DNA of 58,665 nt, filler included, from Dugesia japonica (Eukaryota), in the NCBI GenBank assembly GCA_001938525.1. It is 5 parts of 5 records of this genome, joined end to end, with 100 filler letters (N's around TTAATTAATTAA, not from the genome) between each part and the next. Parts side by side here need not be neighbours in the genome. Positions count along the whole stretch, not along the records: positions 46,942 to 58,665 come from MQRL01586495.1; 4 more parts are not named here. One strand, 5' to 3'. Under the pieces are notes generated by a model. That model saw only the letters and a list, made by a program, of their open reading frames with translations, was not told the DNA's origin and ran no database searches. Both the position numbers and the translations under genes were made by a program. Positions 2,463 through 58,573 of the stretch are shown piece by piece. Each line of letters starts with the position of its first letter. Positions within the stretch are counted from its first letter, which is position 1.

Positions 2463-5400
2463 ACATAGCATTCTAACTGCGGATTGTGAAGGAACCATGC
2501 GATTATGGGACATTGATTCAATAATTGGTACAGAACAAAATTTAAGGCAAACATTTTTGTTTTCATTGGGTAATCAAATTCTCAAAAATTCTTCTGATCG
2601 AAAAAGTCCTGAAATTATGGAAAAATGTTTGCGAATGACAGAACCTTTGCGAACAGATTTATCTAATTATTTGGTTCAAGTTGGAGTTCAAAACATTGCC
2701 GTTAGTTCAACTGGATTTTATTTGGCTGAGTCTCTTGGTATCTATTTGAATATTTGGTTTGAATTTTTTTTTAAACATTAACTTAAATTTGTATTTTTAA
2801 GGAGTACAAAAAGTATATTTTCCAAACCATATGTCGCTTCATTTGTTAGTTTGATAACCTCTTTAATATTTCCTCAACAAACCTTTATGGGTTTACACGG
2901 ATGTCTTGTTGATTTATTGCTGGTTTGTCTTGCAGGTGGTGAATTGCTCTTACTACGAATTTTTGATAATGGGACTCGAGTTACTCAACATCAAATACCA
3001 GGACTCTCGGATGTTCGTGTTATTTTATTTTTAAAGTAATATGTATTAGCAAAATCCATACCAATCTTAGTTATATCTATATCGAAATATTTATAATTAG
3101 GCATATTTATAATACAAATTATTGGTGTTATTCGTTTTCTGGATTTATTTCCTGTAATAAATTGTCAAGGCTGCTACTTTCATTTTAAACAGGCCAGCAT
3201 TCGCAAATTAGGAGAGTTACACTTGAAAAGCTTTTATCTAAAAACAAGTTTTTCAACTAGCTAGCAAATTTGACAATGGCAATAGACTTTTTACCTGTTG
3301 ATCGGATCCAGGAAACATTCGAGAAATTATCCACTATTTATATTGACAATCAAACCCTATAGCGGAAAATTCAGAAGTTCTTTACATATTTTGAATGAAC
3401 ATGATTATCAAATACCTTGCTTATTGATTGATTCGATGCTAATTTTTTAACAAACAACTTTTCAGAGTNATTTAATAAAATAGTCGAAATTACTTCAGTA
3501 ACCCGTTGTCATGTTAGAATAGTTGTTTCTTTTTAAATATTTAAAAAGACTATTTCAGTTAATTCAAAATAAAATTGTAAATAATTCTTCTGTTAAATTT
3601 TATAAATTAACATTTCAAAATTTTTATACGAGAAGAATTTATTTCTCCAATCATGCGAAAACTTCATTTATATTTATCAAGATTCTCTTTTCTAAAAATT
3701 ATTAAAATTATTAACTTTTCTTTAAAGGACCTTTTTTTATTATATTTTTTATTATTANNNNNNNNNNNNNNNNNNNNNNNNNNNNNNNNNNNNNNNNNNN
3801 NNNNNNNNNNNNNNNNNNNNNNNNNNNNNNNNNNNNNNNNNNNNNNNNNNNNNNNNNNNNNNNNNNNNNNNNNNNNNNNNNNNNNNAATTTGATTGCAGT
3901 AGGATATCATGATGGATCGATTGTATTAACTGATCAAATTGGAAACAAAATCATTTTAGAAACAGTGCACAATAATCGGATTTTATTTCTTCTTTATTCT
4001 CCATATGTTACAAATTTTGAGGTATCTTTTTTAACGTTATATAATTAATTTTGGTTTCATAGCAATATCTGTTGGCATCATCTTCTGTTGATGAGACAAA
4101 AGTTGCAATATGGAAGAAGGATAATTTAATGTGTGTTTTGAAATTATCATCATCTATAACCTGCCTAGAATGGTTATCAAGAAAATATATCCATGAAGAT
4201 AAATATCATGTGATCATTACTGGTTTATCTAATGGTTTGATTCAATTTTGGCAAGTTGATGATTCTGGAGATAGCATTCAAGTAACATTAACCTAATTTC
4301 TACGTAATTACTTTGTGGATAGAATGTAATAACATTTTGTGGTCATTCGTGTTCAATTTCGAAATTAAGAATATGTGAAAGTACCAATCTCTTAGCTAGT
4401 GGTTGTAATAATGGTTGGGTGAATGTATGGAGTTTAAAAGATCATTCTTTGATTAGTACCTGTAATGGTGAGGGTATTGTTATTGGAATTGAATGGACAT
4501 TGCAAAATAATCTTGTTACTGCATTCTCTCGTTCCCAATATATAAAGATTTGGAGATATTTTAATAATAATACTTTGCAAAAGAATGGAATCCGTCAATG
4601 GGCATATGTCAGAAAGATTTTTTTAGAATCAACTAAAACTAAATCAATAAAGAATTTAAAGAATTTAAAGCATTTTACTTTATCCATTCATAAATTACTT
4701 AATGAACAAGTAATAAATTTTTATGTAAAATTCATTAAAATATTTTAGTTAAAATCAAATGGTAATTTAAAAAAAATAATTATTCACTTATTCTTTAATT
4801 TTATACTCTAGATCAGTGGTGCCCATAAGGTCGATCGCTTAACAATTTAAAGTCGGTCGCCATCGAATATGAAATTATGTATAGAAAAACTAATTTTTCA
4901 ACCATCTGTCTTATGGCAAAAGAATAATTCTTTCCTATGTGAAATTTAATAATTTTTTATTTTTTTTGTTTCATATTTCCAAACTATTTTAAAAATCGTT
5001 ATGTTAAATTTGTTTTTATATTAAGTGTGTATGGTTTGCAACATTTAAAAATCCAAGCCTACTGTTATTATTATCACATATATACCGATCATTTATTCCA
5101 GTCGATCGCAATTGCTCTTATATTTCAAAAGTAGCTCTTTTGAAAAAAATAGTGGTCACCACTGTTCTAGATGGATGTCATTACGTAATTACAATAAATA
5201 GTTATAAATCTTCAAATCGCCCTTTTAATAAAAATCCATAATCATTACTATTTTCTGACTATTAGTATATTATTAGTATAGAATTTTTTTAACTATGCTT
5301 AATTGAATATGAATAATACTGAAAGGAAACATTTTTTCATTAAGTAAATCATTCCTCGCAATGTTTTCTAGATTCTCCAAATTCCACATTACTCCAAAAA

Positions 5401-8400
5401 AGTTTGTTCCAAATTTTAGTTAATAATTTTATTAACATAATATATACACTGGATTGTTTTCTTCATTTAGAAGGCACATTTAAGTCATGCCTTAATAGCT
5501 TTTATCAGCTTTACATAACCTATATTATATATAAAAGTATCACATTTATTTGGAACAGGCTTGAAACAAGGAAGGTTCAACCAATGCCTCCGCACCAGTT
5601 TCAGAGCGCCAAAATAAACCATAGGGGCGAAAAAATGAGTTTTATAAATTTTTAAACTTTTTTTCTAAAACATTATTTTATGAATTCATTTTAAAGGCAC
5701 TTGCTGAAATGAAACGGCAGTCTTAAGGGGATGTTGCAAACATGCAGCCAGTTTTTATATCTAAAGCAATATACGACATTATAATATCGTGATAATTATT
5801 TTTTAAGTGTGACTGTCGACTGGTTTGCTCTTGCCTGTAGCGTAGTAGATATGGTACGATGTGGTGCTTAAATAACCCTAATAATTTCTAAATGTTAATA
5901 ATAACTTATTTCATAATTAATTTTGTAGTTCATGCCGCATGCAGTATGCTACAGTATACTATACAGAAAGAGCATACACTATACATACCTTACCTAGTGA
6001 ACTACGCAACAATGTTAAACTTTACTTGCTACATAAAATTTCTGGCTTCAACATGTCTTTGACTATAATTCTTTGCCCATAAATAAATTTTGCATCAATT
6101 CCAACTCAGAGTTATCAGATTTTTATTTTGTGTTACCATATTAATCAATATTTCCTGTTTAGTTATTTATTTATTATATATTCTTATTTTACATTTTTAT
6201 AAGTCAAATTATAATTATTAACCATGCCTCCGAAAAAGCAATCAGGATGTTATTTTAGATAAAAAAATCAAATTAAAAGAAAGAGAAAAAAGAATAATTA
6301 TAAGACGTGTCAAAGATTTCTTTGCAAAGGCGAAAAACTGAATCTACTAGTTCACGTTCTTTTTCTGGATAGAGCCAAAGCCTTGAACCTTGCATCAGTT
6401 TACCATATGAACCACATTCTGATTACAATGTTATATGTGAAACAATCAAAACAAAGGAACCAGAAAGGAAAGATGAAGTTGATGACATTGGCGGAATTGT
6501 ACTTGTCATGGAAAACAATGAAATAGGTCAGTCTGTAGGAGTAGTTGACTTGGATTTTATGGGAAACTGGAAAATATATCTGCAAGATGAGAACGGTGTG
6601 TATAACATGGTTTCTAACCATGAAGGAGAATTAATTACTATTGAAGATAGTAATAATATAGTAATAATATAAGATAGTAATAATATAGTAATAATATAAG
6701 ATAGTAATAATATAGTAATAATATAAGATAGTAATAATATAAGATAGTAATAATATAAGATAGTAATAATATAGTAATAATATAAGATAGTAATAATATA
6801 GTAATGATATAAGATAGTAATAAGATAAATAAAAGACAATTCACGTGTCAATATCAACAAAATAACGAAAATTTCATAAACTTTAAAAGATCGATGGTCG
6901 TTTTGGAGTCTTGAATAAGTTGTCAGAAGTATTTAATTTTTTTAAATGGAGCAGTGATATCTAAAACTCTGGCTTTAGAGTTACAAAAATGGCCAGTTGC
7001 CTAGCACTAAAATATGATCAAGATCTGGATGAAAATGAATTCTGTTCAGAAATAGAGACTTCGAAATTCCAGGCTAAGTCAACTTTTAAAGAACATGAAT
7101 TGTCAGATTTATTACTAATACAGCTTCTAAATTGGATTCATTCTATGTCTCTGCAAGAAACATATCCCAACGCAGATATAACTCTGCAAATATTTCTTAC
7201 GTTGCCTGTCACTTTAGCCAGTTGTGAACGAAGTTTTAGCAAATTGAAAATGATAAAAAANTATATGAGATCAACAATGAATCAAGAAAGACTTAGAGAT
7301 TTAGCGATACTCGCAATTGAAAAAGGTTTTGCGCGTGCTTTAGACTACTTTGGTTTGATCGATGAATTTGCTTCCAAGCAAGCGCGAAAAATTGATTTTT
7401 GAGAAGTAAAATTTAAATTTCTGCTTCTTATACTTCTAAATACTGCCATGTTATTCATATATCAAAAAAATTCTTTTAATTTCTTTTTTTTTTGATTTCT
7501 TTTGTCGCTTTTGATGTTTTAAGGGGCGCCAAAATTAGGCTTCGGACCGGATGCCATGAAGCATAGTTTCTGGCCTGATTTGGAATTTGGAGAATCTAGA
7601 CTACGTCATCTTTCGTTAGTTACTTGAGTCATGTTTCATTAAATATGATTTGTTAAGCATTGACGTTTAATTTAATAATTATTCGTTGAAAATGAAAATT
7701 ACTTGACAATGAAAAAGACTGATACCAAGAAAATAGTTATTTCTTTAGGTTATCAGAAGTTTGAACGTTTGTTTTAAATATATTTAAAGTGAACAGTTTT
7801 TTTAACTTTTGATAACTTTTAGGTTGATATAATTTAATTTATAAATGAAATCCAAATTGAAATAATCTTATTATATAAAAATAAAATTTCTCAACGAAAT
7901 ATTCTGCAAAATATTAATTAATACTTAATAATAGTTTGAGTTGTGTTTGTTAATAAAAGTTAATTTCTGTTTAGTTTACTTTTATTTTGATTTATATATC
8001 ATTAAATTATATTCAAAATAATCAAAGTATTATTATTCGAATTATAAATAATTATTTTAGGTCTTTTCATGAATAATTTATTGAATCTTGAGGAAATGAC
8101 AGTTTTTTTAATAATTGCTAATCATTATTTATTTATATTTTTTACTTTACTTTATATTCTACTTTGTTTTTCTTTAATTAACAGGAATTTCGGGGATAGT
8201 GTTTAAAAATGCATTTTAAGTGGTTCACTGTAAAAAATAAGAATTCAGGATCTTAATGAACATTAGTTATTTAAGCATAGTGGTAATGTTCTTTTGGTAT
8301 CATTAAATAAAATAAAGATGATGCCATATTATTTTTAAGAATTTGTATGATAAATCAAAACTAAGTAATTGATCTTACTGTAATGAACGTTACTTTGAAT

Positions 8401-15872: not shown

Positions 15873-16615
15873 TCAAGCTGGGCTTGGTGATTTTACTAAA
15901 CCAATATGTTTTCCTAATTTTAATGCTCGCTGTCGTAACATATCTTGAATCAATTGAAAACACATAGACAAAAGCACTAGTCCAAAGAACAAATATATTG
16001 CACAAATAATCGGCTTGCTCTCATTTTTCCATTGGGAATTCAATAAACCCGGGACTAAATCACCGAAACCAATTGTAGAGAATGTTATAAACACAAAATA
16101 ACAACTATTTAAGTACACCCAATTTTCCCAAAAACTGATTAACAAAGCGCCAACTAAAATATAAACAATAAATACACTCAATGGTAAAATTAATGGCAAT
16201 TCGCATTCGTCTTTACGATGAAGATTGTTCATAAAATCTCCAGTATCAATCGAAATAGTAAAATGAAGTTTTTTCTGCTTTTCTTCACTAGATTCCGTGA
16301 TTCGAGAGAGATTTGTTGAACCACTTGAAAGTAATAATAGATTTTTACCGATTAATTTATTATTCGGTACTGTAAATGATTTACTATCGTACTGGGATTG
16401 AGTTTCAGTTAATGATATTACCGATGCAGTTTTTGTCATCTGTCGTCTTCGACATTTCATCCGATTTCTTAAGCATTTATAAAATATTTTAAAGCCTTTT
16501 CCAAATAAAGAACCAAGATTAGTAAGACATAAAACCATCAGTGGTATTCCAAACATCGCATAAATAATTGTAGCTATTTTACCGTTATTAGTTTGCGGAA
16601 CAATATTCCCATATC
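15873..16615 (-). CDS. Terminal exon of a two-pore-domain (K2P/TWK-type) potassium channel
   Basis: Acceptor TTTCAG|GA splits the Gly codon that begins G-Y-G-N-I-V-P. M2 is IIYAMFGIPLMVL, the second pore is YFVFITFSTIGFGDLVPG, and M4 is IYLFFGLVLLSMCFQLIQ. Upstream exons were not found. Confidence 0.95.
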
Positions 16616-17444
16616 CTGAAATAAAAAGATCATGTAATTTACTTGTCGTTTTAAGCATGTTTCAATGATGACAACTAACAAAAAAATAATTAAAATTCGA
16701 TTATCTATTATCTATTATACAGAGTCTGTACGCTAATAATAACCTCACTTAATGAACCAAAATTTTTACTGGTTAGTCCAAATTGCCAAAAACATTGACT
16801 TAGCATTCATTCTCAATATAACAATAGAAATACTTCAACCATCCAGACACTGTTCATAAACTCAACTCTCTAGCTTATTTGCGAGATCTCCACACCTTCT
16901 TATCTATCCTCGAAATAAATTTTTGTTTCGTTTTATTAGCAATAAGAAATTTTTCTATTTCTTTCAAGTCTTCACAAAGGATTCACTTATTTTCTATTAA
17001 TCTATTTCCTTCTTTTTTTGCATAGCTTATAATTTAAATGCAGTGCTAAAGAATTTTATAGTATATTTGATTCAGAGGAAAAAGTATTAATGGTATAGTT
17101 AACTATTCTAAAATTCTTGAAATTATTAANGATTTATCATTGAAATTTCAATTTATTATAGTAAATATTTAAATTTATTTAAATATTATTAATATAATAA
17201 AATAATTACTACTTCCATTTCAAAATTTTAGTAGATATAATTAAGAAAACTAATATATTATTAATGAATATGATTCGCATAAATATTATTTTTGTAATTA
17301 TAAAATGAACAAGAGCCGCGGTTAATAGTCCAGAGAATACGGTAATTGAAGATTAATCAGAAACATTGAATTAAAACGTGTTTAAAACNNNNNNNNNNNN
17401 NNNNNNNNNNNNNNNNNNNNNNNNNNTTGTTAGTTAATTTTACA

Positions 17445-31800: not shown

Positions 31801-31813
31801 TATACTATAAAAA

Positions 31814-32479
31814 ATGAGTGAAGAGAAAAAAGTTGAAGTTAAAAAGGTTCTTTATCAAGCTAATTCAGCAGATTTATCTTTAGCATGTGTAACAAATATA
31901 ATGAATAATTTTAGTAGTTTTAAAAATTTAGATATAAATGAATTAATAGATTTATCAAAATGTGAAGGAACAAAAGAAATAGCAATACCAAAATTAGAGG
32001 CACTTAAACAATCTTATGAATTAATAGAAAAATTAGATGTTAATCAAAAAACTAAAAATTTCATTAAAGCAATTTCATCTCATTATATGGTTAAAGTTAC
32101 AAAAGATGAATGTAAAAGTTTATCGTTAGATCTTCTTGAAAAGAATTTTAACGAAGCTCTTGAACTTGCTGAATTTTATGAAAAAAAATTTACTGAAGCG
32201 CAAGAAGCTCATAACATAACTTTAAAGAAATATAATGAAACTCGAGTAAAAGTAAAACAACCAAGAATGGTTGAGTTTGACAATTATCTAATGAAATATA
32301 ATCCTGCAGAAAGAGAAGGAAAAAGAAATTATGTAAAGAATGAAGATATTACTAAATTACAACAAAAAATAATTAATGATAAAGAAGGAATTTTAAAACT
32401 TTATAAAAATAGATATAGTAAAGTACCCACAAAGGGAAGTGATTCTATTGCCAATGCTCATGTTAAATTAAAACAATAA
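31814..32479 (+). CDS. Hypothetical helical/coiled-coil protein of the Polinton-like element
   Basis: Intact 221-aa ORF in very AT-rich DNA. AAAATG start context, and the next ORF starts 2 nt after the stop. No family recognised. Confidence 0.7.
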   Translation: MSEEKKVEVKKVLYQANSADLSLACVTNIMNNFSSFKNLDINELIDLSKCEGTKEIAIPKLEALKQSYELIEKLDVNQKTKNFIKAISSHYMVKVTKDECKSLSLDLLEKNFNEALELAEFYEKKFTEAQEAHNITLKKYNETRVKVKQPRMVEFDNYLMKYNPAEREGKRNYVKNEDITKLQQKIINDKEGILKLYKNRYSKVPTKGSDSIANAHVKLKQ

Positions 32480-32481
32480 AA

Positions 32482-32748
32482 ATGGATACAGTTTTATATA
32501 AAATGTTAAGTGAATATAATTTTAAAGAAAACTCTATACAAAACTTTTGTAAAGTTAATAATGTTAATGAGAAAACTATTAAAAAATATTTAAAGAAATG
32601 GAACATTGAATATAACACTAGATCATGGGATCCATCTAGAAATTTACAAAGAAATTCACATGGAAGTTTTATTTCTTTAATTGATAGATTTGAAAAACAA
32701 CACCCAATTAAAAAATCAAATAATGGTAAAATTAATTATGAACAATAA
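32482..32748 (+). CDS. Small putative helix-turn-helix protein
   Basis: SIQNFCKVNNVNEKTIKKYLKKW fits an HTH pattern; identified by eye only. Confidence 0.5.
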   Translation: MDTVLYKMLSEYNFKENSIQNFCKVNNVNEKTIKKYLKKWNIEYNTRSWDPSRNLQRNSHGSFISLIDRFEKQHPIKKSNNGKINYEQ

Positions 32749-32954
32749 AATAAAGAGATTAAAAATATTAATGTAAAAAATAGTGGTGATAATAATTATG
32801 ATGATTTATTTTTAGAGTTGAAAAAAATATGTATGCAGTAACGTATTGTTTTATAGTACTGTTTATAGTTGTGATTTAGTACTGTTTATAGTTGTGATTT
32901 AGTAATACAACCTACAATAAAATATAACACTCTATTAAATTTTACATCTAATAA

Positions 32955-34254
32955 ATGATTACAATGTTAGATTTAGACAATAATATTGAATTTTCACATA
33001 CAGCGGTTAAAAATGATACATTAGTAATATCACCATCAGCAGGAACATTAAGTAAATTAAATTCAAGTGGAGACATAGTATTTCAATCTCTCCAATCTAC
33101 AAATCCACTTGATATCTGTAATTCATTATTATACTTTNNNNNNNNNNNNNNNNNNNNNNNNNNNNNNNNNNNNNNNNNNNNNNNNNNTTAGAAAATAACT
33201 TCTTTCCAAGTTTATTTAATTCATTAAGATTATTTTTAGGTTCATCTGAAATTGAATCAATTAATGATCCAGGTGTAATAAGTACAATGTTAAATTTTAT
33301 ATTTTCAACTGAAACAATAAAAAGGAATATGGACAATTATCAGGTTTGATGCCAGATATAAATAATGGAGATACAGATGTAAAAAATAATGGATATCAAA
33401 TTAGAATGAAACTTTATAACTCAGGTAAATTTGAAGGTTACTTTCCATTAAAAAACTTATTTGGATTCATGCAAAATTATAACAGACTTTTATATAATAC
33501 AGCAATAGAACTTAGATGTAATAGACAAATTGAAAATAATTTATTATGTTATGGTGATAAAGATGCAAAAGCTACTTTAGAATTAGATGCACTAGAATTT
33601 CACATACCAGAAGTAAGATTATTACCTAAAACAGAATTAATAATGTTAGAAAGAATATCAACAGAGAAATCAATTAAAGTTTCATATTTAAACAGAATAT
33701 GTGGTAAAACTAATTTAGAAGTCGGTCCTTTTTATTCAATTAAAATTGGTAGTTTAGCATATCAACCTAGATATATTTTAATTTGTTTTAAATCACCAAA
33801 TTCTTCATTAGAAACTAATGATAATCTATTTATACAGAAAGTTACAATAACTACAAAAGTCGAAGCAAAAGATGTACCAAAATCTAATTATCTTAAAGGT
33901 TTACAATTACAATTAAATAATACTAACTATCCAGCTAATGAATTAAAATTTGATATGTCTAAAAATGAAATGGCTCATCCTTATTTAAATTATATAAATT
34001 GTTGTCATGACTTTTTCATTGAACCACAATTATCATTATTAGATTTTGGTAATTTATATCCACTATTTTGTTTTGATACAANNNNNNNNNNNNNNNNNNN
34101 NNNNNNNNNNNNNNNNNNNNNNNNNNNNNNNNNNNNNNNNNNNNNNNNNNNNNNNNNNNNNNNNNNNNNNNNNNNNGAAGAAAAACATGTAGAGATGAAA
34201 CTTGCTAATAGTAAAGTTGTTATGATAGAAAATGTTAAAGGTCAAGATATTTAA
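32955..34254 (+). pseudogene. Double-jelly-roll major capsid protein (Polinton-type), with a frameshift near 33330 and N gaps
   Basis: LNSSGDIVF, NNFFPSLFNSLRLFLGSSEIESINDPG, FPLKNLFGFMQNYNRLL, PRYILICF, LNNTNYP and YPLFCFD are motifs typical of Polinton capsids. Confidence 0.8.
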
Positions 34255-34272
34255 TTATTTCCTCTTAAATAA

Positions 34273-35560
34273 ATGTCCTCTAAAAATAATTTTATATGTG
34301 ACAATTGTGGTAAAATTATTTTAAAAAAGAATAAATCCAGACATTTAGATTTATGTATAAATAGTGTAAAGCAAACTAAATCAAGTTTTATTAGAAAAGG
34401 TTTTAAAACCAATTACAACAGAAAAATATCCAGGTGAAAGACATTTATTTAAATATAATTACACTGGTCCTGGAACTAGATTAGATATTAGACTTGATGA
34501 AAATAATAATCCTAAATCTGGTGAAGAACCAATTAATAAAGTTGATGAATCTGCATTAAAACATGATATTGCTTATAATTCAGAAGATCTTAGAGATAGA
34601 CATATTGCTGATGTTAATTTAATACATGATCTAAATAATATCCCAAACCCAACATTAACAGAAAAGTTTCAAAGAGCTCTTGTAAAATTAGCTATGAAAG
34701 GTAAAATAATGATTGGTAAAGGTGGAACTAAAAAAGATCCATTTAAGAAAAGTACAATTATAAAAGATGAATCTGAAGATGAAACTAATGATAAAGAAAT
34801 ATTAAGTAAAGAACTACATAAAGAATATAGAAAACCTAAACATTTTAGAAAAGTAATTGTTTATGAAAAAGATGATATTTGGTCTGCTGATTTAATATTT
34901 CAAGGTATTGAATGTAAAGGTAAAAATGTAATACTAACATTTATAGATCTTTACACTAGATATGCATTTGTTGAACTTTAAAAAAGTAAGACTGGACAAG
35001 AAACAACAAAATCATTTGAAAGAATTTTAACTAAAAGTTTTAGAACTCCAAATAAATTATGGACTGATGAAGGATTAGAATTTTATAATTCATCATTTAA
35101 ATCTTTCTGTAAAAAAATGACATTCTTTTATATTCAACATTAAATCAAGGTAAAGCAGTTGTTATTGAAAGATTTAATCGCACATTTAAAAATAATCTCT
35201 TTCAACATTTTACTGCCGTTGGAAATCAAGATATCAATATTAAGTTATTAGAACAAATTGTTGATGATTACAATAACACAATACATTCATCAATTAATGT
35301 TACACCTCAACAAGCAACAAATAATCCAGAAAGTATTGAAATTGAAATACCAAAAGATTACAATCAAAATCTAAAATTTAAAATTGGTGATAGAGTTAGA
35401 ACTACTAAAATTGGAAAAACATTTCCTAAAGGTTATACATTTAAATGGACAAAAAGAATTTATGTTATTACTAAAATTTATCATGAACAACCTATAACAT
35501 TTCAAATCTCAAATCTTAACGGCAACAAAATATTGGGAAGATTATATAGTAATTACAAAA
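34273..35560 (+). pseudogene. Zinc finger / parvovirus-type phospholipase A2 / DDE integrase gene
   Basis: 34273: CDNC-x11-H-x3-C finger. The frame open from 34370 reads YNYTGPGT...PINKVDESALKHDIAY...RHIAD (PLA2) and runs without a stop into WSADL, TFIDLYTRYAF. After a stop at 34979 and a frameshift near 35115 it continues LWTDEGLEF, VIERFNRTFK, YNNTIHSSI and KFKIGDRVR (Maverick-type integrase). Confidence 0.9.
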
Positions 35561-35611
35561 AACTTCTTTATAAATTGTTAAATGTAAGATGTAAAATTTT
35601 ACATATAGAAA

Positions 35612-35830
35612 ATGGAAGATTTTAATAATTATTATCTTAATATTAATGATGATATTCAAGTAAAAGAATTAGAAGAAAAAATAGAAAATAAGAAAATAGA
35701 AATCTATAATTACAATTGTGAAATAAAAAAACAACATGCTATGAATGAATTAGAAGGATTATATGTAGATATGGAACAATTGATACATAATTTAACTTAC
35801 ACCCAATATTTATTAGATAAATATAAATGA
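35612..35830 (+). CDS. Small hypothetical coiled-coil ORF
   Basis: 72-aa ORF preceded by the shared upstream motif. Confidence 0.5.
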   Translation: MEDFNNYYLNINDDIQVKELEEKIENKKIEIYNYNCEIKKQHAMNELEGLYVDMEQLIHNLTYTQYLLDKYK

Positions 35831-46941: not shown

Positions 46942-48429
46942 TTCTAGTTGTAAGATTTTAATATGTTTTACAACACTTGAAACTAAATATCTTTTATAAA
47001 TCGATTTGGGTTTTAATTAATTTAGATTTTGTAACAATATCCTACTAACAATCATTGAAATTAATAAAAAGATTTGATATTCTTCATTTTAAAACTACAC
47101 CTGTGAATACTTATATTTTATTTTCAAAAACTTTTGATTTTATAAATGTGTAATTTACTGTTGACAAAATAAAGTTCTCATTTGTTGTAAATATGAAAAG
47201 GAGTATATTATTTGCTTTATTATTAATTAGCTTTATCTTTATTTATATTTATTTAATCTTAAAACTTGGTAACGTCAAAGATTTATAAATTACGAAATTA
47301 TTTATGAAAATAGTAGGTGGTAAGCTAGGAAATCAACGGATGATATGAAAATAAGACTATTATAAGAAATTAGTAAATTGAAAGTAATATGAAAACCGGG
47401 TAAAATCAGGAAGTAAAATCGATAAAATTTATTATTTTATATTTTCAGAGATCATGTCGAGATATCCACGAAAATCATCACAGAGCTTACAACCAGGAAG
47501 ATAAACTACAGGAAGATACTATAAAGGAATATAAATTAAAGGAAGATAATCAGGAAGAAAATTAAGGAAGCTAATCAGGAAGAAAATTTCAGGAAGATAT
47601 TAGGAAGAATATTCAGTCATACTTATTACGGATGCAGTTATGGGAAATAGGGATCCCCAACTGGTAAGCTACAATCAGAAGATTGATCACCTTTGTAGAA
47701 AGTAACCGCAGCAGTTGTCTAATGACTATAACTGAAGAAGTAATTGGGTATTATTGGATTTGTGATATAATTTAGAAAGCCTGCGTATGGGAGGGAAAAC
47801 CTCGGAAGATATTAACGGAAGCCTGCACAAGGAAGGAAGATACGTGAAGTCCTAAGCACATTAACCAGTATGTTAAAGGAAGGCCACGTAATTAAGCACA
47901 CTAAAAGAAGCCTGATTAGAGGAAGAATTAAAGGAAGCCGGAAGCGTTTGCCTGCACGAAAAGAGTATTCCAAACGGGGCCGCCGATCCCTCAGAAAGCT
48001 CTCGGTACTCCCCCAGGAAGAATTATTAAAAGTGTGCATTGTNNNNNNNNNNNNNNNNNNNNNNNNNNNNNNNNNNNNNNNNNNNNNNNNNNAAACGGGG
48101 CCGCCGATCCCTCAGAAAGCTCTCGGTACTCCCCCAGGAAGAATTATTAAAAGTGTGCATTGTTACACCGGCATATCAAAAGGAAGAAAAGGAAGAAAGC
48201 CAGAAGAGTTCGCCTATACTACAGAAAAATGGGTACTCCTACATTTAGGAAGAGATAACCTGGCGTTAATTAGAAAAAAAGGAAGTATTACAGGAAGATT
48301 AAAGGAAAGCTTAATTAAGGAAAACGGAAAAAGAGAAAATTTAAGGAAGATGGTTGTGGGGCTATGATGACAAGTATAGAGCAGCATGGTATTAAAGTAA
48401 GTTTAAAAAAACAGGAAGAGGAGTAATTG

Positions 48430-49139: not shown

Positions 49140-52100
49140 ATGCAAGAAAATGAAAGATTAAGACAACGAGTAAATCAAAACAAGGGACAAGTCAATTTAG
49201 TACATCAAAATACTTTCGACAATGTGTATCACAAGGTGCAACAGGAAAACGATTGGCTCAAGTGGCAAAACCAAGACTTGCAGGTACAGCAGGAGAGACT
49301 GGCCAAAAGGAACTTGTTAAACGAACCACATAAGAATCAGTGTAATATGGTTAGGACACACAGGCAGATTTATAATCAACATGACGAAACAATAGAAGTC
49401 ACCAAAACGGAAGATACGCGAAAACGAATATTTATCACGTCACCGGAATTCGAGTGGACCGAAGAGATCATCTATAAAACAATAAAAACGTCAGTAACAA
49501 CCACCGGTAGAAGAAGAGTGATGAACCAGTTACTTCAATTATATCAGCACCCACAAGTACACGCAAAGGTAAAAGCTAACTGGCAAAAAACAATATCGGA
49601 TTATATCGCCGAGCTGTATAAAGAAACCCAGTTAGACGATTATGAGTTTGAAATTCAATATGTATGGCATAACAACCCGGAAGTCATTTTAAAACGGCTA
49701 AAATTACACCTAAAAAGTACGACACTTGAAAGGAGCACTTAGCGAAATAAAATGGGATAAAGTAAACCCGTCCCTCGAATCACCACCATTTAACGAGCAG
49801 CAGCAATGGAATGGGAAGTGGATTAAGCACCGATTGCAACTAGGGAATATAGGAATCAATATTCTTCCCGATGACAAGAACCTAATTTATTACGGGGCAC
49901 GACCTCATGAAACTACAGTAATCAAATTGATAAATTGGGATTTGGTATCCCGAGCATAAATGGTAATCCAAGAAATAGAAACAGACGAGTTATATCATAA
50001 TCTCGAAGAAACATTCCTAAAGAAAATAGTTCCCCTCCAGGCTCAAAACTACATGCGTAAAAGATTGGGAAAAATAAGGCTAATAGACTATCCAGAATTG
50101 GAACAAGCCGAAGCGTCACGGTTATCCTTAGCCCGAATTGATGAGATACAGGTAGCAGCTCAGAAACTCCATGATACGATAAAGAAAGAAGTATACCTAA
50201 AGTTGACAAATCAATTGGTTGAATTATTGGAAGTTATACAACTGATCACCGAGTGCGAAAGCGATTGGACAGAATGGTTACCAGTGCATTATGAGTGGGT
50301 AATATCCAACATGGGATTATCAGATTACCAAGTATGGCTATATAACCCGGAAGGAAATATGAAACTGACGCTCACAAGATTAATGGTAGAGGATCTAGAA
50401 GCGGCGTTTAATCAAGCCGGTTATCCATGCATAACCGATAAATATGTATGCACTCCAAGTGCTATCGTAGATTTTAATGCCGGAAAGAAACATCTATATG
50501 ATTTTGGAGTAAAACCAGGAGAGGACATTGAAATCGTAGTATTGGACAAACACCATGGTATCAACTACGACATCTGGATAACAAAATCCGGACGATCAGC
50601 TTTAGAAATCATGGGAGAAATGGAGTATCTATATAAACAAGGGGTAGAGCCGATTAAAATCAAAATAATTTCCACTGTACTCGGGAAGAAGGATAAACTG
50701 ACAAAGGAGGAGAGGAAGCAGTTATTAATGACGCATAATGATTTTCTCAAACAACGATTAGAGAGAAGAGAAGGCAATTGCAACATGATAAGAATGTGGC
50801 AAATGCCATCAAGAGAAGTGGTAGCAATGCGAAAAGTGGAAGAAATGGTTCACCGAGTACAGATAGAGAGGGAGAAGTTCCCTCAAGAGACCTATTGGAT
50901 GATAATGAATAGAATCTACGACATATATGACGGACTAGAAATACCGGAGGAAATCGAGAACCAGTCGCTCATGATTAAACAAAAGTATGCCGAAGAAATA
51001 TTGGCGACTACAAAAATTCAAGATTATAAATTATATTTAAATATCGGGGAAAATGAACAGGAAGTGACTAAATATAGTCGATTTAAACCACAAGGAATAA
51101 CCATGATGGATTTAANNNNNNNNNNNNNNNNNNNNNNNNNNNNNNNNNNNNNNNNNNNNNNNNNNNNNNNNNNNNNNNNNNNNNNNGTTGAGACCGACGA
51201 CGAGGACAAACACATATTTCAATGCCACGCAAAGCCCGGAGAAATATGTGAGTTAGATATAGACGAGGAGCCGCGGACGGATCAATCACCGGATCTCAAG
51301 GAGCAAATGGAAGAGATAACAGAACTATACGTATCCGAAGTATTGTCCGGCATAAAGGAACACGTAAAAGAAAGTCAGAAAATACAGAATATTGATAACT
51401 TGCCAATAACCACCACCAAATCAGTTGTATTTCCGGAAGGGACGCCAACAATACGCGATATTGGGGTGAACTACACAAAACCGATAACCGAGGAATCCGC
51501 TACGTTTCACGCTATCAACAACCTATTAAGAGTAACACGAGAAACTCGACCAGTCGTGAATATCAAAGTATATTGGAAGATGACGAATAACTTACGGAAT
51601 TTGGCAATCTATGGACAACTCAGCTTGTGGGCTCAAGCACAATGGTGGAAAGAGATAACCTTATACGAAGATGAAGTACAAAATACATCCACCATATCCG
51701 ACTATTCTATTAGAGTCAGCCTCCTTAATAAAAAGGGAAGCATAAAAAAGGTAGATATGATAACGCTGGAAGGATTAACGGTCAACCATATCATAAAACC
51801 AATCAAGAAATGGCTATGGCCAAAATCGCTCAAGTCTTATAAAATGGAGGCAGGAGCAACAATGATCATATTAGCAGAGAAGGAGGATCACATCTTCTTA
51901 CATGATATCAAACCAGGAGAGATCACAGAAATAAAATTAACACCACGTAAAATGACCATCGACATCCCGATACCAAAAACACCGGATACCGACCAACTCA
52001 TATTCAATATGATGAGCCTATATCTACAAGAAATACTACCAGTAGAGAATGAACGACTTATAAACACTTATGGAGAAAACAAAGTCCAGGTAAACATGGT

Positions 52101-54650
52101 TCGGGATAATGACCATGACACCACAGATCTAACATCAGATGAAGAGGAGCTGGAGGAAGAAATCTCGGAGGATATTGGCCAACCCCGGTTGTTACCATTT
52201 AAACATAAATTCGCTGGTCCTTTCAGCTCCCATCAGGCAGAGCAGATATCGAAGATAATATCTGATTTCTGTAATTTCCAGGAAAGTATACCTAGGGCAG
52301 CATTTTGGAAAGCATTAAATTTACTAATGGATCTGGCAAAATATACTGAAATAGCAAAGGAAGAATGTGCCAAATAGGAGTCAGTAATCAAGTTGTATGT
52401 TGGTGCAGTGAAAACAAGTGCCAGAGGAGAAGACTTTCAAGTCACGATATCTGAGGAAAGAACCAGAATTGGCTGTCATTCACATACCACATTGAGATTT
52501 ACTATAAAGTTTGAAGGAAAACAACATTTAATGGACGCAGGATTGAGACTCGGAGAAAATACATTTCTTCAAATACAGAAACCAGAGGATTGCATCCCAG
52601 GACCATTAAAATCTATGAAGGAAGTAATACAGCAACTAGAGGAGTTGTACGAACAAGAAATCAACAATGATAAGTTATTTGAAGAAGTCAACAATAGAAC
52701 AATGGAGATAAATATTGAGTTATGGGAAGACAGTAAAACATGAGGAAGTCTGGCGCGAGTAATAATGAAAATACTCTTAACCTTGGAAGAAAACTTGGAA
52801 CTATTAAGACATGACAAAGTCATTCAATTAGTTCTAAAGCTAAATCAATTACGAGCTATAAGTCAAATGCCTGAAGACATAATGGATGCAATATTAAATA
52901 AAGCAGTTCGAATGATAACCAATGAAGCCGTCACGGTAACAATCAGATTTCCCGACGAAAGTGAAATTCGTTGGCAGGTCCAAATGAACGAACCATGGGC
53001 TAAGTTGCAGAAGAAGATTGTAAAATTTATGAATCAACAACGTAGCCTTAACGAGGAGAAAACTAGAGTGCAAACATCAGTTCAGGAAGACGACATAGTA
53101 CTCTATTACAACCACGTAATAGAATCAGACCAAATGAGATTGCCAGTAAAATATATGGGGGTTTGACCAGGTACTAAATTAAAATTTTATGTAACATCAA
53201 GGGAGGAGAAGAGACGACGCCTACGGGTCTCGGAGGAAAAATGAAAGCAGGAAGCTAGGGAATTAGTGGAATATTACATAGAAGAAATAAATCCATTAAT
53301 ATTCACTAGAGCCAAGCTCCCTAAACAAGAGCAAAATAAACAACGAGTAGAGATGGTAGCAGCTCCGACTAACACCCCGGTCAAAGACGAGAAACCGGAA
53401 GACAATATACCGAAATTGTTTGAATTACTGGTAGGCGATAAGTTAATAAAACCGGAAATCATACGACGATGCAATATAGCCTTACAACAAGATCTAGCCG
53501 TAGAAGATCTTAGAAAATTGCGACGAGTAATACTAGCCATCAAAGTAGCACATGTATGAGATCCAGTTCAGTTCAGTAAGATTCCGGTTAAATGGCGGAA
53601 AGCAGAGATGGGCCAGACCACGCCATTAGAAGTCAAATTCAGAATAATCGATCCAGAGGGGGATAAAGTCACAATTAGGATACCAGTATATAATACAATC
53701 AAGCACCTACGGGATAAGCTACCATTTAAGCCACCATACAAACTCTTGGGTGAAGATGGAATAGTGGAAGATACCACTCCGATTGAACTGATGAAAATAG
53801 ATTTAGTTAAACCTAATACGTTGTGGATTTTTCCCGAATTGGGAGGTACTCTCACTCGTAAAGACGCAGATCCTTTTGAAGCAGTAGATAAAACCAGACC
53901 AATAATGGGAGAGGCCTCAGGTATGTTAAAAGCATATAAACACCGCACATAACTAGCGGCTAGTCAAATATTAAGACCTACAACCGATCAATCAGGAAGT
54001 GCAGAAGCATCCCGAGAAACTAAAGAAACTCCTAAAACAAGCCAAGATTGGGATCATTGAAACAAAAACGATTAACGACATCCATAAATCATCAAACTAA
54101 GCGATTAGCAACGGTATCACAAGAGAGATACCACGAAAAATCGACAGATGATGACATACCAACCGAATTAGTAATACGGCAGTTACTGCTAATGTTGTAT
54201 CCGGAATTAAAAATATGGATTGGGAAATTTCAACTATCAGATAATCTCAGACCACTGGCAAAGAAATAGAAGCAGCCATTAAGAAATTCCCTGCCATTAA
54301 AGGTACTAGTCTTTGTACCAGAGATAATTTTGAAGGAGTCATGGACGAATTATTACAAGATCAGCCAGCCAAGGATAGTAGTATCCATAACACATCTGAT
54401 TAATCAAACACATCTATCAATCGCAAGAAGCAAGCCGTCAAAAAATTTCATTCTAGGTAAACTACCAATAGTGGATCTAATGCAGAACAAGATAGTGCCG
54501 TTAATAAAACAGCATGGGGGATGGAAAAAGTTCATTGAGGCTATATGCCCTAAACCTCAGCCATCTCATGAAAATGCAACTAGAGTAATCAGGATTGTCC
54601 GGGATCAGTTAAATGAGATCGAGAATGGATGGACACGCGGGCCCCGCCAA
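49140..54650 (+). pseudogene. Accessory polyprotein region: ubiquitin/SUMO-like repeats, possible CARD-like domains, Bcl-2-like domain
   Basis: ORFs from 49726 to 53952 share one reading frame and are separated only by stop codons. Repeated DY...KPGE units, a UBL ending LWIFPELGG, and IKQHGGWKKF. Confidence 0.65.
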
Positions 54651-54656
54651 AATTCA

Positions 54657-55100
54657 TGGCAAGCGTTAACCACTACAATACTCTTGTTATTCTTAATGAT
54701 GGGCAGAGGTGAAGCCATACTAGCATACGATTGCGATGGAATGCAAGTTGGGAAAGAGGTATTCTCATTAGTGGATACAGAGGAATGTCCAGATGCAAAC
54801 CCGGAAAATATCTCACTCCGTAACAATTCCATTTATCATCTATATCAGGAGTCAGATTATTATAAGGCCCAAATACGCGAATGTACGGTAACGGTAAAAA
54901 CGTTCATATTTCATTGCGGATAACATAGTTATACATCAATAATCGACCCAAAAACGGTGAGACATCCGGTACATTAGCAATGGCGGTTACAAACCCCGAT
55001 AGTGTCACTTCACTACTCCCGTTGGAAAAAGGACAATTCGGTCGAGTGGTCGGAGAAGTAATGTACCTATACAAATGCAAAGCCATAGATGCTGAGTTCT
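54657..55100 (+). pseudogene. env: Internally deleted chuvirus-type envelope glycoprotein
   Basis: Signal peptide TTTILLLFLMMGRGEA, then ILAYDC...FSLVDTEEC...HLYQ...ECTVTVKTFIFHCG*HS. In another frame: LAMAVTNPD...GQFGRVVGEVMYLYKCKAID. Confidence 0.75.
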
Positions 55101-55379
55101 CGTCTAAAAGGAGAAAGCACACCAGCACCAGTACAAATGTATTATAACGCCTATCCGCAGCATGGTTGGCCACCCATGAACCAACAACCCTAACAAGTAT
55201 GGGCACCAGGTCCCATGTACAACAATCCGTATATAAGCCCGCCACAAGCCCCGAATATGGCGCTATTAACAGGAAGCAATATATCAATTATGGACCGAAG
55301 AGTAATCGAGCAAAACTTGCGCGCTCCAAATAACCCAATTACTGAGTATGATAAGTTAGAAACACAGACTGTATGTATG

Positions 55380-55730
55380 ATGATTTCCCAGAAAGCAAAA
55401 TTATTACAGAAAAGGATAAAGATCGACGGAAGATGGGTAATAGCTATTATCGATACAGGAGCAAGTACAACGCTAGTCCAAAAAAGAAAATTAGAAGATT
55501 ATCGACTACTTAGAATAACAATAACTAAAGGAGTTATCATCACTGCCTCCGGAGAAAAAATCTCACCCTAGGGAGAAGCAATATGCGCAATAGAAAGCAA
55601 CGGAACCCGGCTCTGGCATAAACTGCAAATAATGAACGAATTAACATTCGACTGTCTATTGGGGTTGGACCTCTTGTCACGCCTTTGTCCGGAGGGAATA
55701 TTGGATTTGAGAGAACTAACGATACGGGAA
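55380..55730 (+). pseudogene. First retropepsin-like aspartic protease
   Basis: IKIDGRWVIAIIDTGASTTLV...ITASGEKI and FDCLLGLDLL, with one in-frame stop at 55569. Confidence 0.88.
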
Positions 55731-56027
55731 AATTACGATCAGGAGTATGCCCCGGTAGGGTATCAGAGAACTCGAATAATAACCAAACAGAAACGACCAC
55801 AACACTGGAATCAGCCAACACCCAACCGGCTGCAGCAACGCTCAACGGGCCGAAACGAACAAAATAACTCGAATCAAGATTGTCGGAAAATCACTCATAC
55901 AGCCACCATGATAAGGGACGATTGGATAAGGTTTCAAGAACGAGAACCAAGATGAAAAAACCAATCAAAATCAAACCCCAGTCATAACCCTTCAGATGTA
56001 GTATGCACAAGCCTCAACGGCGGACCA

Positions 56028-58573
56028 ATGCTAACCATTATGGTTAAAATAAACGGCCGACACATAACAGCCCTATTGGACACAGGAGCAACCAAATCGT
56101 TGCTGCCAATAGATGAAATTGCGATAACCGATTACAAAAACATATTACCTACGAACACTATAGTGGATGTGGCAAATGGTAGTAGCCTCAAGATTTTTGG
56201 AGAATTAGCCTGTGAAGTCGAATATCAGGATAACAAAATTAAACACAATATGATCATAGTAAAAATGATGGAACAGTGTATACTAGGAACAGACATTCTT
56301 CCCGTCCTGATGAAAAACGTTATATTAAACTTCTCAACATTACGGTTACAATCATTGGAGGGGTATGCCCATGTGAAAGATCAGGAAGTATTCACCACAG
56401 AAAAAATCTTGGTGCCTAGTAGATGTCAAGTATATTGTGTAGTCAGTACCAAAAGTGCATATAAAGGAGATTGTTATTTCGAACCGTATGACGGATTTGC
56501 ACACCAGTACGAGCTACCCACAGCAGGAGGAATAACCACGGTCAACAAAAGTGGGGAAGTACCAGTTAGTTTGATCAACTTCACGGAAAAAGATATCAAA
56601 ATCAAACCTAACTCTAGGATGGGTACACTAACCCCCATCGAACCAGAGCCCGACGGGATAGAAGAAGTAGTCGCTGAACCGGAAATCGACAGAACGTTTA
56701 AAGTAGAGACGGAAACTTTGTCGGAGGGTCAGAAACAAGCAATACTGCAACTGCTGGAGGAATTTAGAGACATTTTTGCATGGACTGATGAAAATTTGGG
56801 TATGTGCACAGCGACAAGGCACACAATTCCACTAACAGACGAAACGCCATGCAAACAGAAGCCATATGCCATGACGGTAGAGAAAAAAGAGTTTGCAAAT
56901 AAGGAAACGGCCAAATTAGTAAAAATTGGGGAAATAGAACCTAGCTGCTCACCGTGGCAGTCACCAGTGGTAATGGTCGATAAAAAAGATGGGACACAGC
57001 GATTCTGTATCAATTACAGAAGACTGAATGCCCAGACTAAGAAAGACACTTATCAATTGCCAGATATCAATGAACTATTGCAACTGTTGTGTAACGCTAA
57101 AATATTTATCACGCTGGATTTGCGAAGCGGTTACTGGCAAATAGAAATCAAACCAGAAGATAGAAAGAAAACCGCCTTTTCTACAGGCAAAATTTGTATC
57201 AGTTCATCCGTATGCCATTCGGACTTACTAATGCACCAGCCTCATTCCAACGAATGATGAATTACGTAACTCACGGCATATCTCAATGTATAGCCTATAT
57301 CGATGATATACTAATCTTTTTGCCAACCTTTGAAGGGCACCTAAATGACTTGCGTAGTGTGTTTGTACGATTACGTAAAAGGAATCTAAAAGTGAAACCC
57401 ACCAAATGCGAATGGGCCAAGAATAAAGTAACATATTTAGGTCATTTAATATCGGATAAAGGAAAAGAGCCCGATCCACGAAATACCGAGAAGATACGAA
57501 ATCTAGCACCGCCAAATTGCGTGCTCAAAATACAAGAATTTCTCGGTCTCGCGAACTATTATCGATAATTCATTAAGGATTTCACTAAAATTGCGAAGCC
57601 GATGCAGGAACTGGTCAAACAAGATACTGCCTTTATATGGGGGCTGGAACAACAACAGTCATTTGAAACATTACGAGACAAATTATTAACTGCACCAATT
57701 CTGGTACACCCAGATTTCAAGAAGCCATTTATATTAGCCACTGACGCTAGTGGATACGCGATGGGTGCAGTTTTGAGCCAACTAGATGAACAAGGAAGAG
57801 AACGAGTAATTGCATATTTTAGCAAGAAATTTTAAGGAGCAGATTTAAATTACAGCACAACAGAACGAGAGATAATGGCTATTGTGAAAGCCACTAAACA
57901 TTTTCGATCACTTATACATGGTCACGAGGTGGTAATCTATACGGACCACTTACCAATTACGTTCATGGCGCAGAAACCATTACGATGGAATAGAATGGCC
58001 AAGTGGTAACTGGCAATGCAGGATTATTGTCCTCTGTTAAAGTTTAAAACGGGTAAAGCAAACTCAAATGCTGACTGCCTGTCCAGAATCGGTGGACCGG
58101 AAACTACGGAGAATGCACCAGAAAGTACAGAAACGTTCATATTGCTAGAATTATAGGAGAAAAAAGTAGGAATGGTATATTTCATACTAGCGGAAGATAG
58201 AAATTTTGATGGACTAAAGCAAGCACAGGCTGATGATGATGAGATAAAGATCATTATGAAATACATGGAAAATTACAATTTAGAAAAGTTAGAATGTGAA
58301 CTTAAGATGAAGGAACACCTAAAGAAAAATGGTGGTTGGTATGCACTTACCAAAGGATGGTTGACAGTGTTAGCTATCACTAAAGCAAGGCGGGATAAAA
58401 TACTTGAACAATATAACAATGGAGTACTCGTTGGACACATGTCTCACAAGAAAACCGAATTCAAGTTAAGACAGAAATATTACTGGCCACATATGACGGA
58501 ATCTGTGAAGGAATGGATTGATAAATGCCAAATATGTGCTGCCAGGAGAGAAACGGGCTTTCCTCTTGATTGA
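56028..58573 (+). pseudogene. pol: pol: second protease, RT, RNase H and integrase zinc finger (disrupted, truncated)
   Basis: ALLDTGATKS...CILGTDIL; SPWQSPVVMVDKKDG, LDLRSGYWQI, RMPFGLTNAPASFQR, YIDDILI; ATDASGYAMGAVLSQ; GHMSHKKT...YYWPHM...CQIC. Several frameshifts and stops; the integrase core is absent. Confidence 0.97.

Follow-up and report, generated by a model that had tools for sequence, protein, structure and literature searches.

The closest described systems are the Burro (GYPSM1) elements of planarians, which are giant gypsy-like LTR elements. According to Arkhipova and Yushenova (2019; PMC6431247), Grohme et al. (2018) observed a BCL2-like motif in Burro-2, -3, and -4. In Burro elements, a Ubi2/SUMO-like domain (PF11976) precedes the BCL2-like motif, BCL2 and the protease are separated by an Env with kinship to mononegavirus fusion proteins, and a dUTPase-like domain is located between the protease and the reverse transcriptase (RT) (PMC6431247). 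There is hardly any doubt that a Bcl-2-like domain in front of Env has already been published for planarian Burro elements. The RING/BIR cargo of Burro1, named B-IAP, is reported to protect stem cells from apoptosis (Lee et al., 2026, Dev Cell, as cited in PMC13465017). This cargo resembles the domain discussed here in being apoptosis-related and carried by a planarian gypsy element, but it acts on caspases, belongs to another family than the Bcl-2-like domain, and comes with reported functional tests. Burro1 and Burro4 are expressed upon knock-down of smedwi-2, according to the available section of a further report (PMC8532177). A second set of related elements consists of six Schmidtea GAG-ENV-POL elements of about 15–18 kb (Smed_errantivirus_1–6, HSV/gB-type), taken from the accessible part of Chary and Hayashi (2026; PMC13524379); the string ‘bcl’ does not occur in the main text of that paper, as far as it is accessible.

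The stretch of DNA analyzed here (the window; 58,665 nucleotides of Dugesia japonica) is AT-rich animal DNA with 20–30% GC, while its final 11 kb, starting at about 47.5 kb, have 35–41% GC. Pfam scans of the ORF pieces revealed, in this order, a long cargo stretch without a family, a Monjiviricetes (chuvirus-type) fusion glycoprotein (PF24664; Env), two aspartyl proteases, a weak dUTPase, an RT, an RNase H, and an integrase zinc finger. This is a decayed Ty3/gypsy-type element with env ahead of pol, and its coding parts described below lie on the + strand. The longest open piece (49960–52377; 805 aa) is a cargo part of the polyprotein and has no Pfam family. The frame that opens at 49960 contains six stops, up to 53952. 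A candidate SUMO/ubiquitin-like domain (52744–53166) is a weak lead from Atlas clusters (PF11976 0.82, PF00240 0.79, both below the reliability mark of 0.9), and Pfam gave no ubiquitin match for the ORF pieces of the window, this one included. A second putative ubiquitin-like domain (53560–53952) is homologous to the pre-Env stretch of relative P0004 (27% identity over 88 aa, E 3e-7); the single-sequence AlphaFold model of this ORF has a pLDDT of 33 and no usable fold, and Foldseek returned nothing for it.

Downstream of the glycoprotein fragments, Pfam identified a first aspartyl protease domain broken by a stop (55194–55955), a frameshifted stretch with a second protease, a dUTPase-like domain, and the RT (55956–57568), and an RNase H followed by an integrase zinc-binding domain (57569–58573), after which the window ends before the integrase core and the 3′ LTR. 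The dUTPase-like match (PF00692, E 0.0016) remains under the cut-off and lies at the expected place between protease and RT. The tandem aspartyl-protease-like domains (55194–56310) ahead of the dUTPase-like domain have a counterpart in P0006, P0025, P0026, and P0032, each with at least two such domains. No LTR pair is present among the repeats listed, and about 11 kb of the element are visible up to the window end. Near the left edge of the element, a short duplication flanks a masked gap (47800–48100), possibly an assembly artefact. Contig records matching 53.5–55.5 kb numbered between 1,315 and 4,895 in each of four runs, mostly at 90–95% identity or lower, and they are so numerous and diverged that many diverged copies of the family must exist; depth differences among contigs were not taken as copy numbers. 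The copy in the window itself is almost certainly dead.

The element shares with Burro the BCL2-like domain directly before Env, the position of Env between gag/cargo and pol (from the Pfam order, as a single frame is not demonstrable in a broken copy), and the placement of the dUTPase-like domain. A counterpart of the SUMO-like domain before BCL2 is a candidate at most, given by the weak PF11976 lead described above. What sets the window copy apart from Burro is that it is broken, more compact, and equipped with two protease-like domains; no Pfam match to BIR, RING, MATH, ankyrin, or a CCHC knuckle was found in the scanned ORF pieces, where masked bases may hide a knuckle. The internal region of Burro reaches up to 25 kb, versus the roughly 11 kb visible here before the window end cuts the element. 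Measured against the published description of Burro, the window element looks more like a compact relative than like Burro1 proper. It also resembles Smed_errantivirus_1–6 in gene order and Env type, as judged from the accessible part of that source (PMC13524379). When the 47 N-terminal residues of Env were compared by eye with elements 1, 2, and 4 (three of the six), 21, 19, and 18 residues were shared, respectively; these three are not identical to the window element, which has lost most of Env. The likeness of its Env to that of Schmidtea elements and the AT-rich animal surroundings would agree with a planarian host, as for Burro.

The initial annotation proposed a Bcl-2-like domain immediately upstream of the glycoprotein, read in a single frame through a stop at 54267. 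The motifs it quoted were placed correctly: KIVPLIKQHGGW starts at 54489 and ISQPRIVV at 54360, both in one frame, which also contains TAG 54267. An overlapping ORF (54245–54403) carries NFEGVMDELLQD at 54326 and is the frame that codes from about 54260 to 54368. Trained on the other ORFs of the element, a codon-phase model that was correct for 34 of 37 held-out pieces assigns 54060–54255 to the originally annotated frame, 54263–54365 to the overlapping frame, and 54375–54915 to the annotated frame again; within the domain, it switches to the overlapping frame only in 54263–54365. Comparison with other contigs gave the same borders, with small indels separating other copies from the window copy at about 54258–62 and 54369–70. 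The Bcl-2-like domain of the window copy is thus broken twice by small frameshifts. Since 54263–54365 codes in the overlapping frame, TAG 54267 is a by-product of the frame shift and no point nonsense codon. The indels in the other copies and the codon-phase model rule out the point-nonsense reading, and reading through this stop follows the wrong frame, as it lies in the out-of-register stretch between the two shifts.

The domain can accordingly be divided into three pieces. Piece A (54150–54257, annotated frame) comprises the N-terminal helix and the start of the helix at the BH3 position, with a phmmer match to P0007 from query residue 39. Piece B (54260–54367, overlapping frame) contains the helices up to the start of BH1, including NFEGVMDELLQD, which aligns with the F-x-x-V-x-x-E-L-F-x-D stretch ahead of NWGR in natural Bcl-2 proteins. 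Piece C (54372–54542, annotated frame) extends from the RIVV helix 5 to BH2 (LIKQHGGWKKF) and scores 23.1 bits against the profile of the relatives described below. In some contigs of the same species, both flanks of 54263–54603 are kept around a different, shorter interior across the Bcl-2-like region, which suggests sub-families that may be diverging or losing the domain.

BH2 had been called good. Its GGWxxF core is present, but the motif is not fully canonical, as the first Trp of WIxxxGGW is a Leu in the window copy; this position is Trp in seven of eight domain-bearing relatives. When the triplets of the element were shuffled 1000 times, a loose BH2 pattern, fitted after the motif had been seen, arose in one shuffle and plain GGWxxF in 25; plain GGW occurs three times in the six frames of the element. 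The proposal of KISQPRIVVSI as a degenerate BH1 does not hold: the codon-phase model and the indels in other copies place K-I-S-Q-P out of register, and only RIVVSI belongs to the domain, as helix 5. The BH1 site falls on the second break, which spares no more than the Arg/Lys and helix 5. The spacing from this Arg to GGW is 48 residues, versus 45–50 in motif-selected Bcl-2 references. The BH1 signature NWGR is found in none of the eight domain-bearing relatives, one of which starts too late to hold it. The Gly and Arg of NWGR are needed for BH3 binding in Bcl-2. As NWGR is absent from all eight relatives, anti-apoptotic activity is not assured.

Taken alone, the window sequence had no Bcl-2 match in Pfam or the Atlas and none among PDB sequences, where only glycosyltransferases appeared (E 0.2–1). 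Word-indexed protein searches with the window copy returned no relative, and locus searches of metagenome and viral contigs gave no match. The fold of the single-frame translation, proposed as a check by the initial annotation, was predicted by AlphaFold as all-helical with a pLDDT of 39 and had no Foldseek match; 37 of its residues are out of register. The Foldseek blanks carry no evidence, because both single-sequence models are of low confidence (pLDDT 39 and 33). The single copy is too diverged for direct matches. Natural Bcl-2-like ORFs were collected by their WGR and GGW motifs, and Pfam Bcl-2 was matched by 3/3 and 14/14 of those tested. The reference profile contains 76 sequences from 109 unique cores, after removal of seven motif-only or doubtful ORFs and of those with fewer than 85 upstream residues. 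Against this profile, the ORF 54270–54920 was the top of 1703 pieces (E 0.12), with BH2 alone covered. Once X was placed at both breaks, an alignment was obtained over 98 columns (probability 84.5, E 6.9e-6), versus 23 columns for the annotated frame. The observed scores were reached by 0 of 2000 full shuffles, by 8 of 2000 shuffles that kept BH2, and by 9 of 2000 for the upstream part alone.

A phmmer search over 1.84 billion proteins yielded 37 matches, of which 17 were informative, with 110 aa or more ahead of the start of Env; the other 20 were excluded because their upstream sequence was too short or an Env start was not detected. Eight of the 17 carry a Bcl-2-like domain at the same place before Env, and in seven of these the phmmer match itself extends over the BH2 region. 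Pfam Bcl-2 is matched by 7/8 at E 0.1 or better (best 7.7e-5). The curated cut-off of PF00452 (31.4 bits) is missed by every relative (16.5–23.6 bits for five relatives), and the window copy has no match. In a comparison of the relatives’ profile with 177,635 PDB sequences, the best 60 of 135 matches all belonged to the Bcl-2 family, led by Bcl-xL (E 5.4e-6), Bcl-2, A1, and a viral Bcl-2 homologue. Profile-profile comparison with natural Bcl-2 sets gave probabilities of 95–97%. Of 1703 six-frame pieces, the unaltered ORF of the window scores best against this profile (E 3.5e-6, versus 0.69 for the runner-up), while piece B alone does not score. The claim of a Bcl-2-like domain upstream of the glycoprotein is supported through its relatives. 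Most of the Bcl-2 signal is located in helix 5 to BH2, and the BH3-side half is poorly conserved among the eight. Without the BH2 columns, the profile matches weakly (probability 3, E 0.015). The signal is also partly circular, because the eight relatives were chosen with the Bcl-2 profile, whose members were chosen by the WGR and GGW motifs.

The region nevertheless very probably is homologous to Bcl-2. Like PF00452 and Bcl-xL, its best PDB match, it has a hydrophobic helix at the C-terminus and, between the BH3 position and BH2 (helix 5 included), the same arrangement of helices. It differs by its embedding in a polyprotein, a longer linker, and a hydrophobic helix that also precedes Env. 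In its proposed action it resembles a candidate viral-type Bcl-2, but it departs from the family in two strict features, with a score below the Pfam cut-off and no NWGR. The relatives are 16–37% identical to the first of the eight, with the domain in frame and BH2 recognisable. P0006 and P0009 join the Bcl-2-like domain and Env in one ORF, and that of P0009 also contains a CCHC knuckle and a weak ubiquitin match (E 0.031). The domain is absent from the other nine informative relatives, one of which (P0004) keeps a homologue of 53560–53949 and a close Env. The Bcl-2-like domain is therefore dispensable for this Env. Relative P0034 has a BEL/Pao-type DUF5641 domain directly ahead of the same glycoprotein family, so that another element class uses this Env.

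A linker (54543–54665) separates BH2 from a hydrophobic helix (54666–54722; Kyte-Doolittle 1.54 over 19 aa), which is a putative internal signal sequence of Env and possibly the tail anchor of the Bcl-2-like domain. In line with the downstream signal-peptide helix and glycoprotein of the initial annotation, the helix is followed by AYDC and a PF24664 glycoprotein match. The latter consists of an N-terminal fragment of a chuvirus/gB-type fusion glycoprotein with the AYDC start (54720–54974, stop at 54921; PF24664 positions 5–87, E 1.2e-11) and a middle fragment in another frame (54971–55105; PF24664 positions 348–392, P0006 residues 494–528). About 250 aa are missing before the middle fragment and most of the remainder after it. 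In other copies, the sequence departs from that of the window past about 54974 and 55065 and ahead of 55109. From BH2 to Env, the distance is 69 aa in the window copy versus 51–81 aa in the eight relatives, with the hydrophobic helix in between. The helix starts 47 aa after GGW, versus 0–24 aa in 24 natural Bcl-2-like tails, and it is less hydrophobic than these natural tails (1.54 versus 1.64–2.88; rows filtered at 1.6, some with intron read-through). The layout of all eight relatives fits a tether, and the chances that the signal helix does tether the Bcl-2-like domain appear evenly balanced.

Taken together, the locus is probably a frameshifted, non-coding copy of a Burro-type pre-Env Bcl-2-like cargo, whose intact versions likely act as a membrane-tethered brake on host death. 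In intact elements, the domain would be made on the cytosolic side, as part of a gag-cargo-env-pol polyprotein. A processing model for an Env whose entry is led by a helix and followed by cleavage is provided by viral polyproteins that contain internal signal sequences. On this model, Env would be led into the ER by the hydrophobic helix; with a cut ahead of AYDC, the Bcl-2-like domain would stay tethered by its C-terminus to the ER membrane, in the topology of cellular Bcl-2 proteins. The tethered domain might then damp apoptosis in element-expressing cells through a non-canonical groove without NWGR. An anti-apoptotic action of the intact domains is an even bet, and the case for cell survival suffers from the loss of NWGR throughout the family (0/8 relatives). 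The idea that the domain keeps element-expressing cells alive cannot apply to the window copy, where the six stops of the upstream frame (49960–53952) and the frameshifts rule it out. A further proposal, which we consider rather doubtful, is that of an NWGR-less retroelement branch of Bcl-2, with the Env signal helix as tail anchor, as a second anti-death arm (ER/mitochondrion) of planarian-type elements besides the caspase-level B-IAP, and as a module gained and lost among related elements (8/17).

The main competitor is a Bcl-2 fold that blocks no apoptosis and instead binds innate-immune or other host proteins, as the poxviral Bcl-2-fold proteins A52, B14, and K7 do. The lack of NWGR in 8/8 relatives, the poor conservation of their BH3-side half, and the ubiquitin-like cargo that adjoins the domain in P0009 all agree with such a binder. 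Yet BH2 is kept, with its first Trp in 7/8 relatives, and no poxviral immunomodulator occurs among the best 60 of 135 PDB matches, where Bcl-xL, Bcl-2, A1, and the viral homologue lead; moreover, Pfam Bcl-2 still recognises a herpesvirus-type Bcl-2-like protein whose helices have diverged. We regard this binder as unlikely, at about one half of the weight of an even chance. Somewhat less probable still is a purely structural role, in which a captured passenger would serve as a spacer in front of the Env signal helix while drifting or being lost. That nine of the 17 relatives do without the domain, including P0004 with its upstream ubiquitin-like homologue and close Env, and that some same-species contigs replace or skip the stretch with both flanks kept, would suit a passenger, but an in-frame domain with recognisable BH2 in eight relatives at only 16–37% identity is hard to explain without selection.

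It is very improbable that HGGW is a chance match in a region unrelated to Bcl-2. Such a reading could draw on the single copy, which has no direct match in Pfam, PDB, the Atlas, or the fold searches of a low-confidence model, and on the three plain GGW in the six frames of the element. It is largely refuted by the Pfam, PDB, and profile-profile results of the relatives and by the published Burro order, an independent annotation of the same position (PMC6431247).

We thus retain the reading of a broken copy of a Bcl-2-like cargo. As a discovery it is minor, because reports from 2018–2019 already describe the domain and where it lies, and the window copy is broken. The eight natural relatives allow a functional test without mending. 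If the intact domains block death, apoptosis of the host would come under retroelement control at its mitochondrial step, with a bearing on the persistence of elements in the stem cells of regenerating animals. The literature searches returned no experiment on the function of the Burro Bcl-2-like domain; Grohme et al. (2018) and Lee et al. (2026) may treat the loss of NWGR, the anchor, or the function.

Elsewhere in the window, a remnant resembling Maverick/Polinton elements (31811–35625, + strand) encodes a double jelly-roll capsid-like ORF (PF21738, E 1.6e-15) and a parvovirus-type phospholipase A2 (PF08398, E 8e-10), along with weak matches to a C39-type protease and an integrase. An exon of a two-pore-type potassium channel gene (15873–16661, − strand) matches Ion_trans_2 in two stretches. 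The + strand also contains a WD40-repeat exon (4323–4748) and a hAT transposase dimerisation domain (6965–7402).
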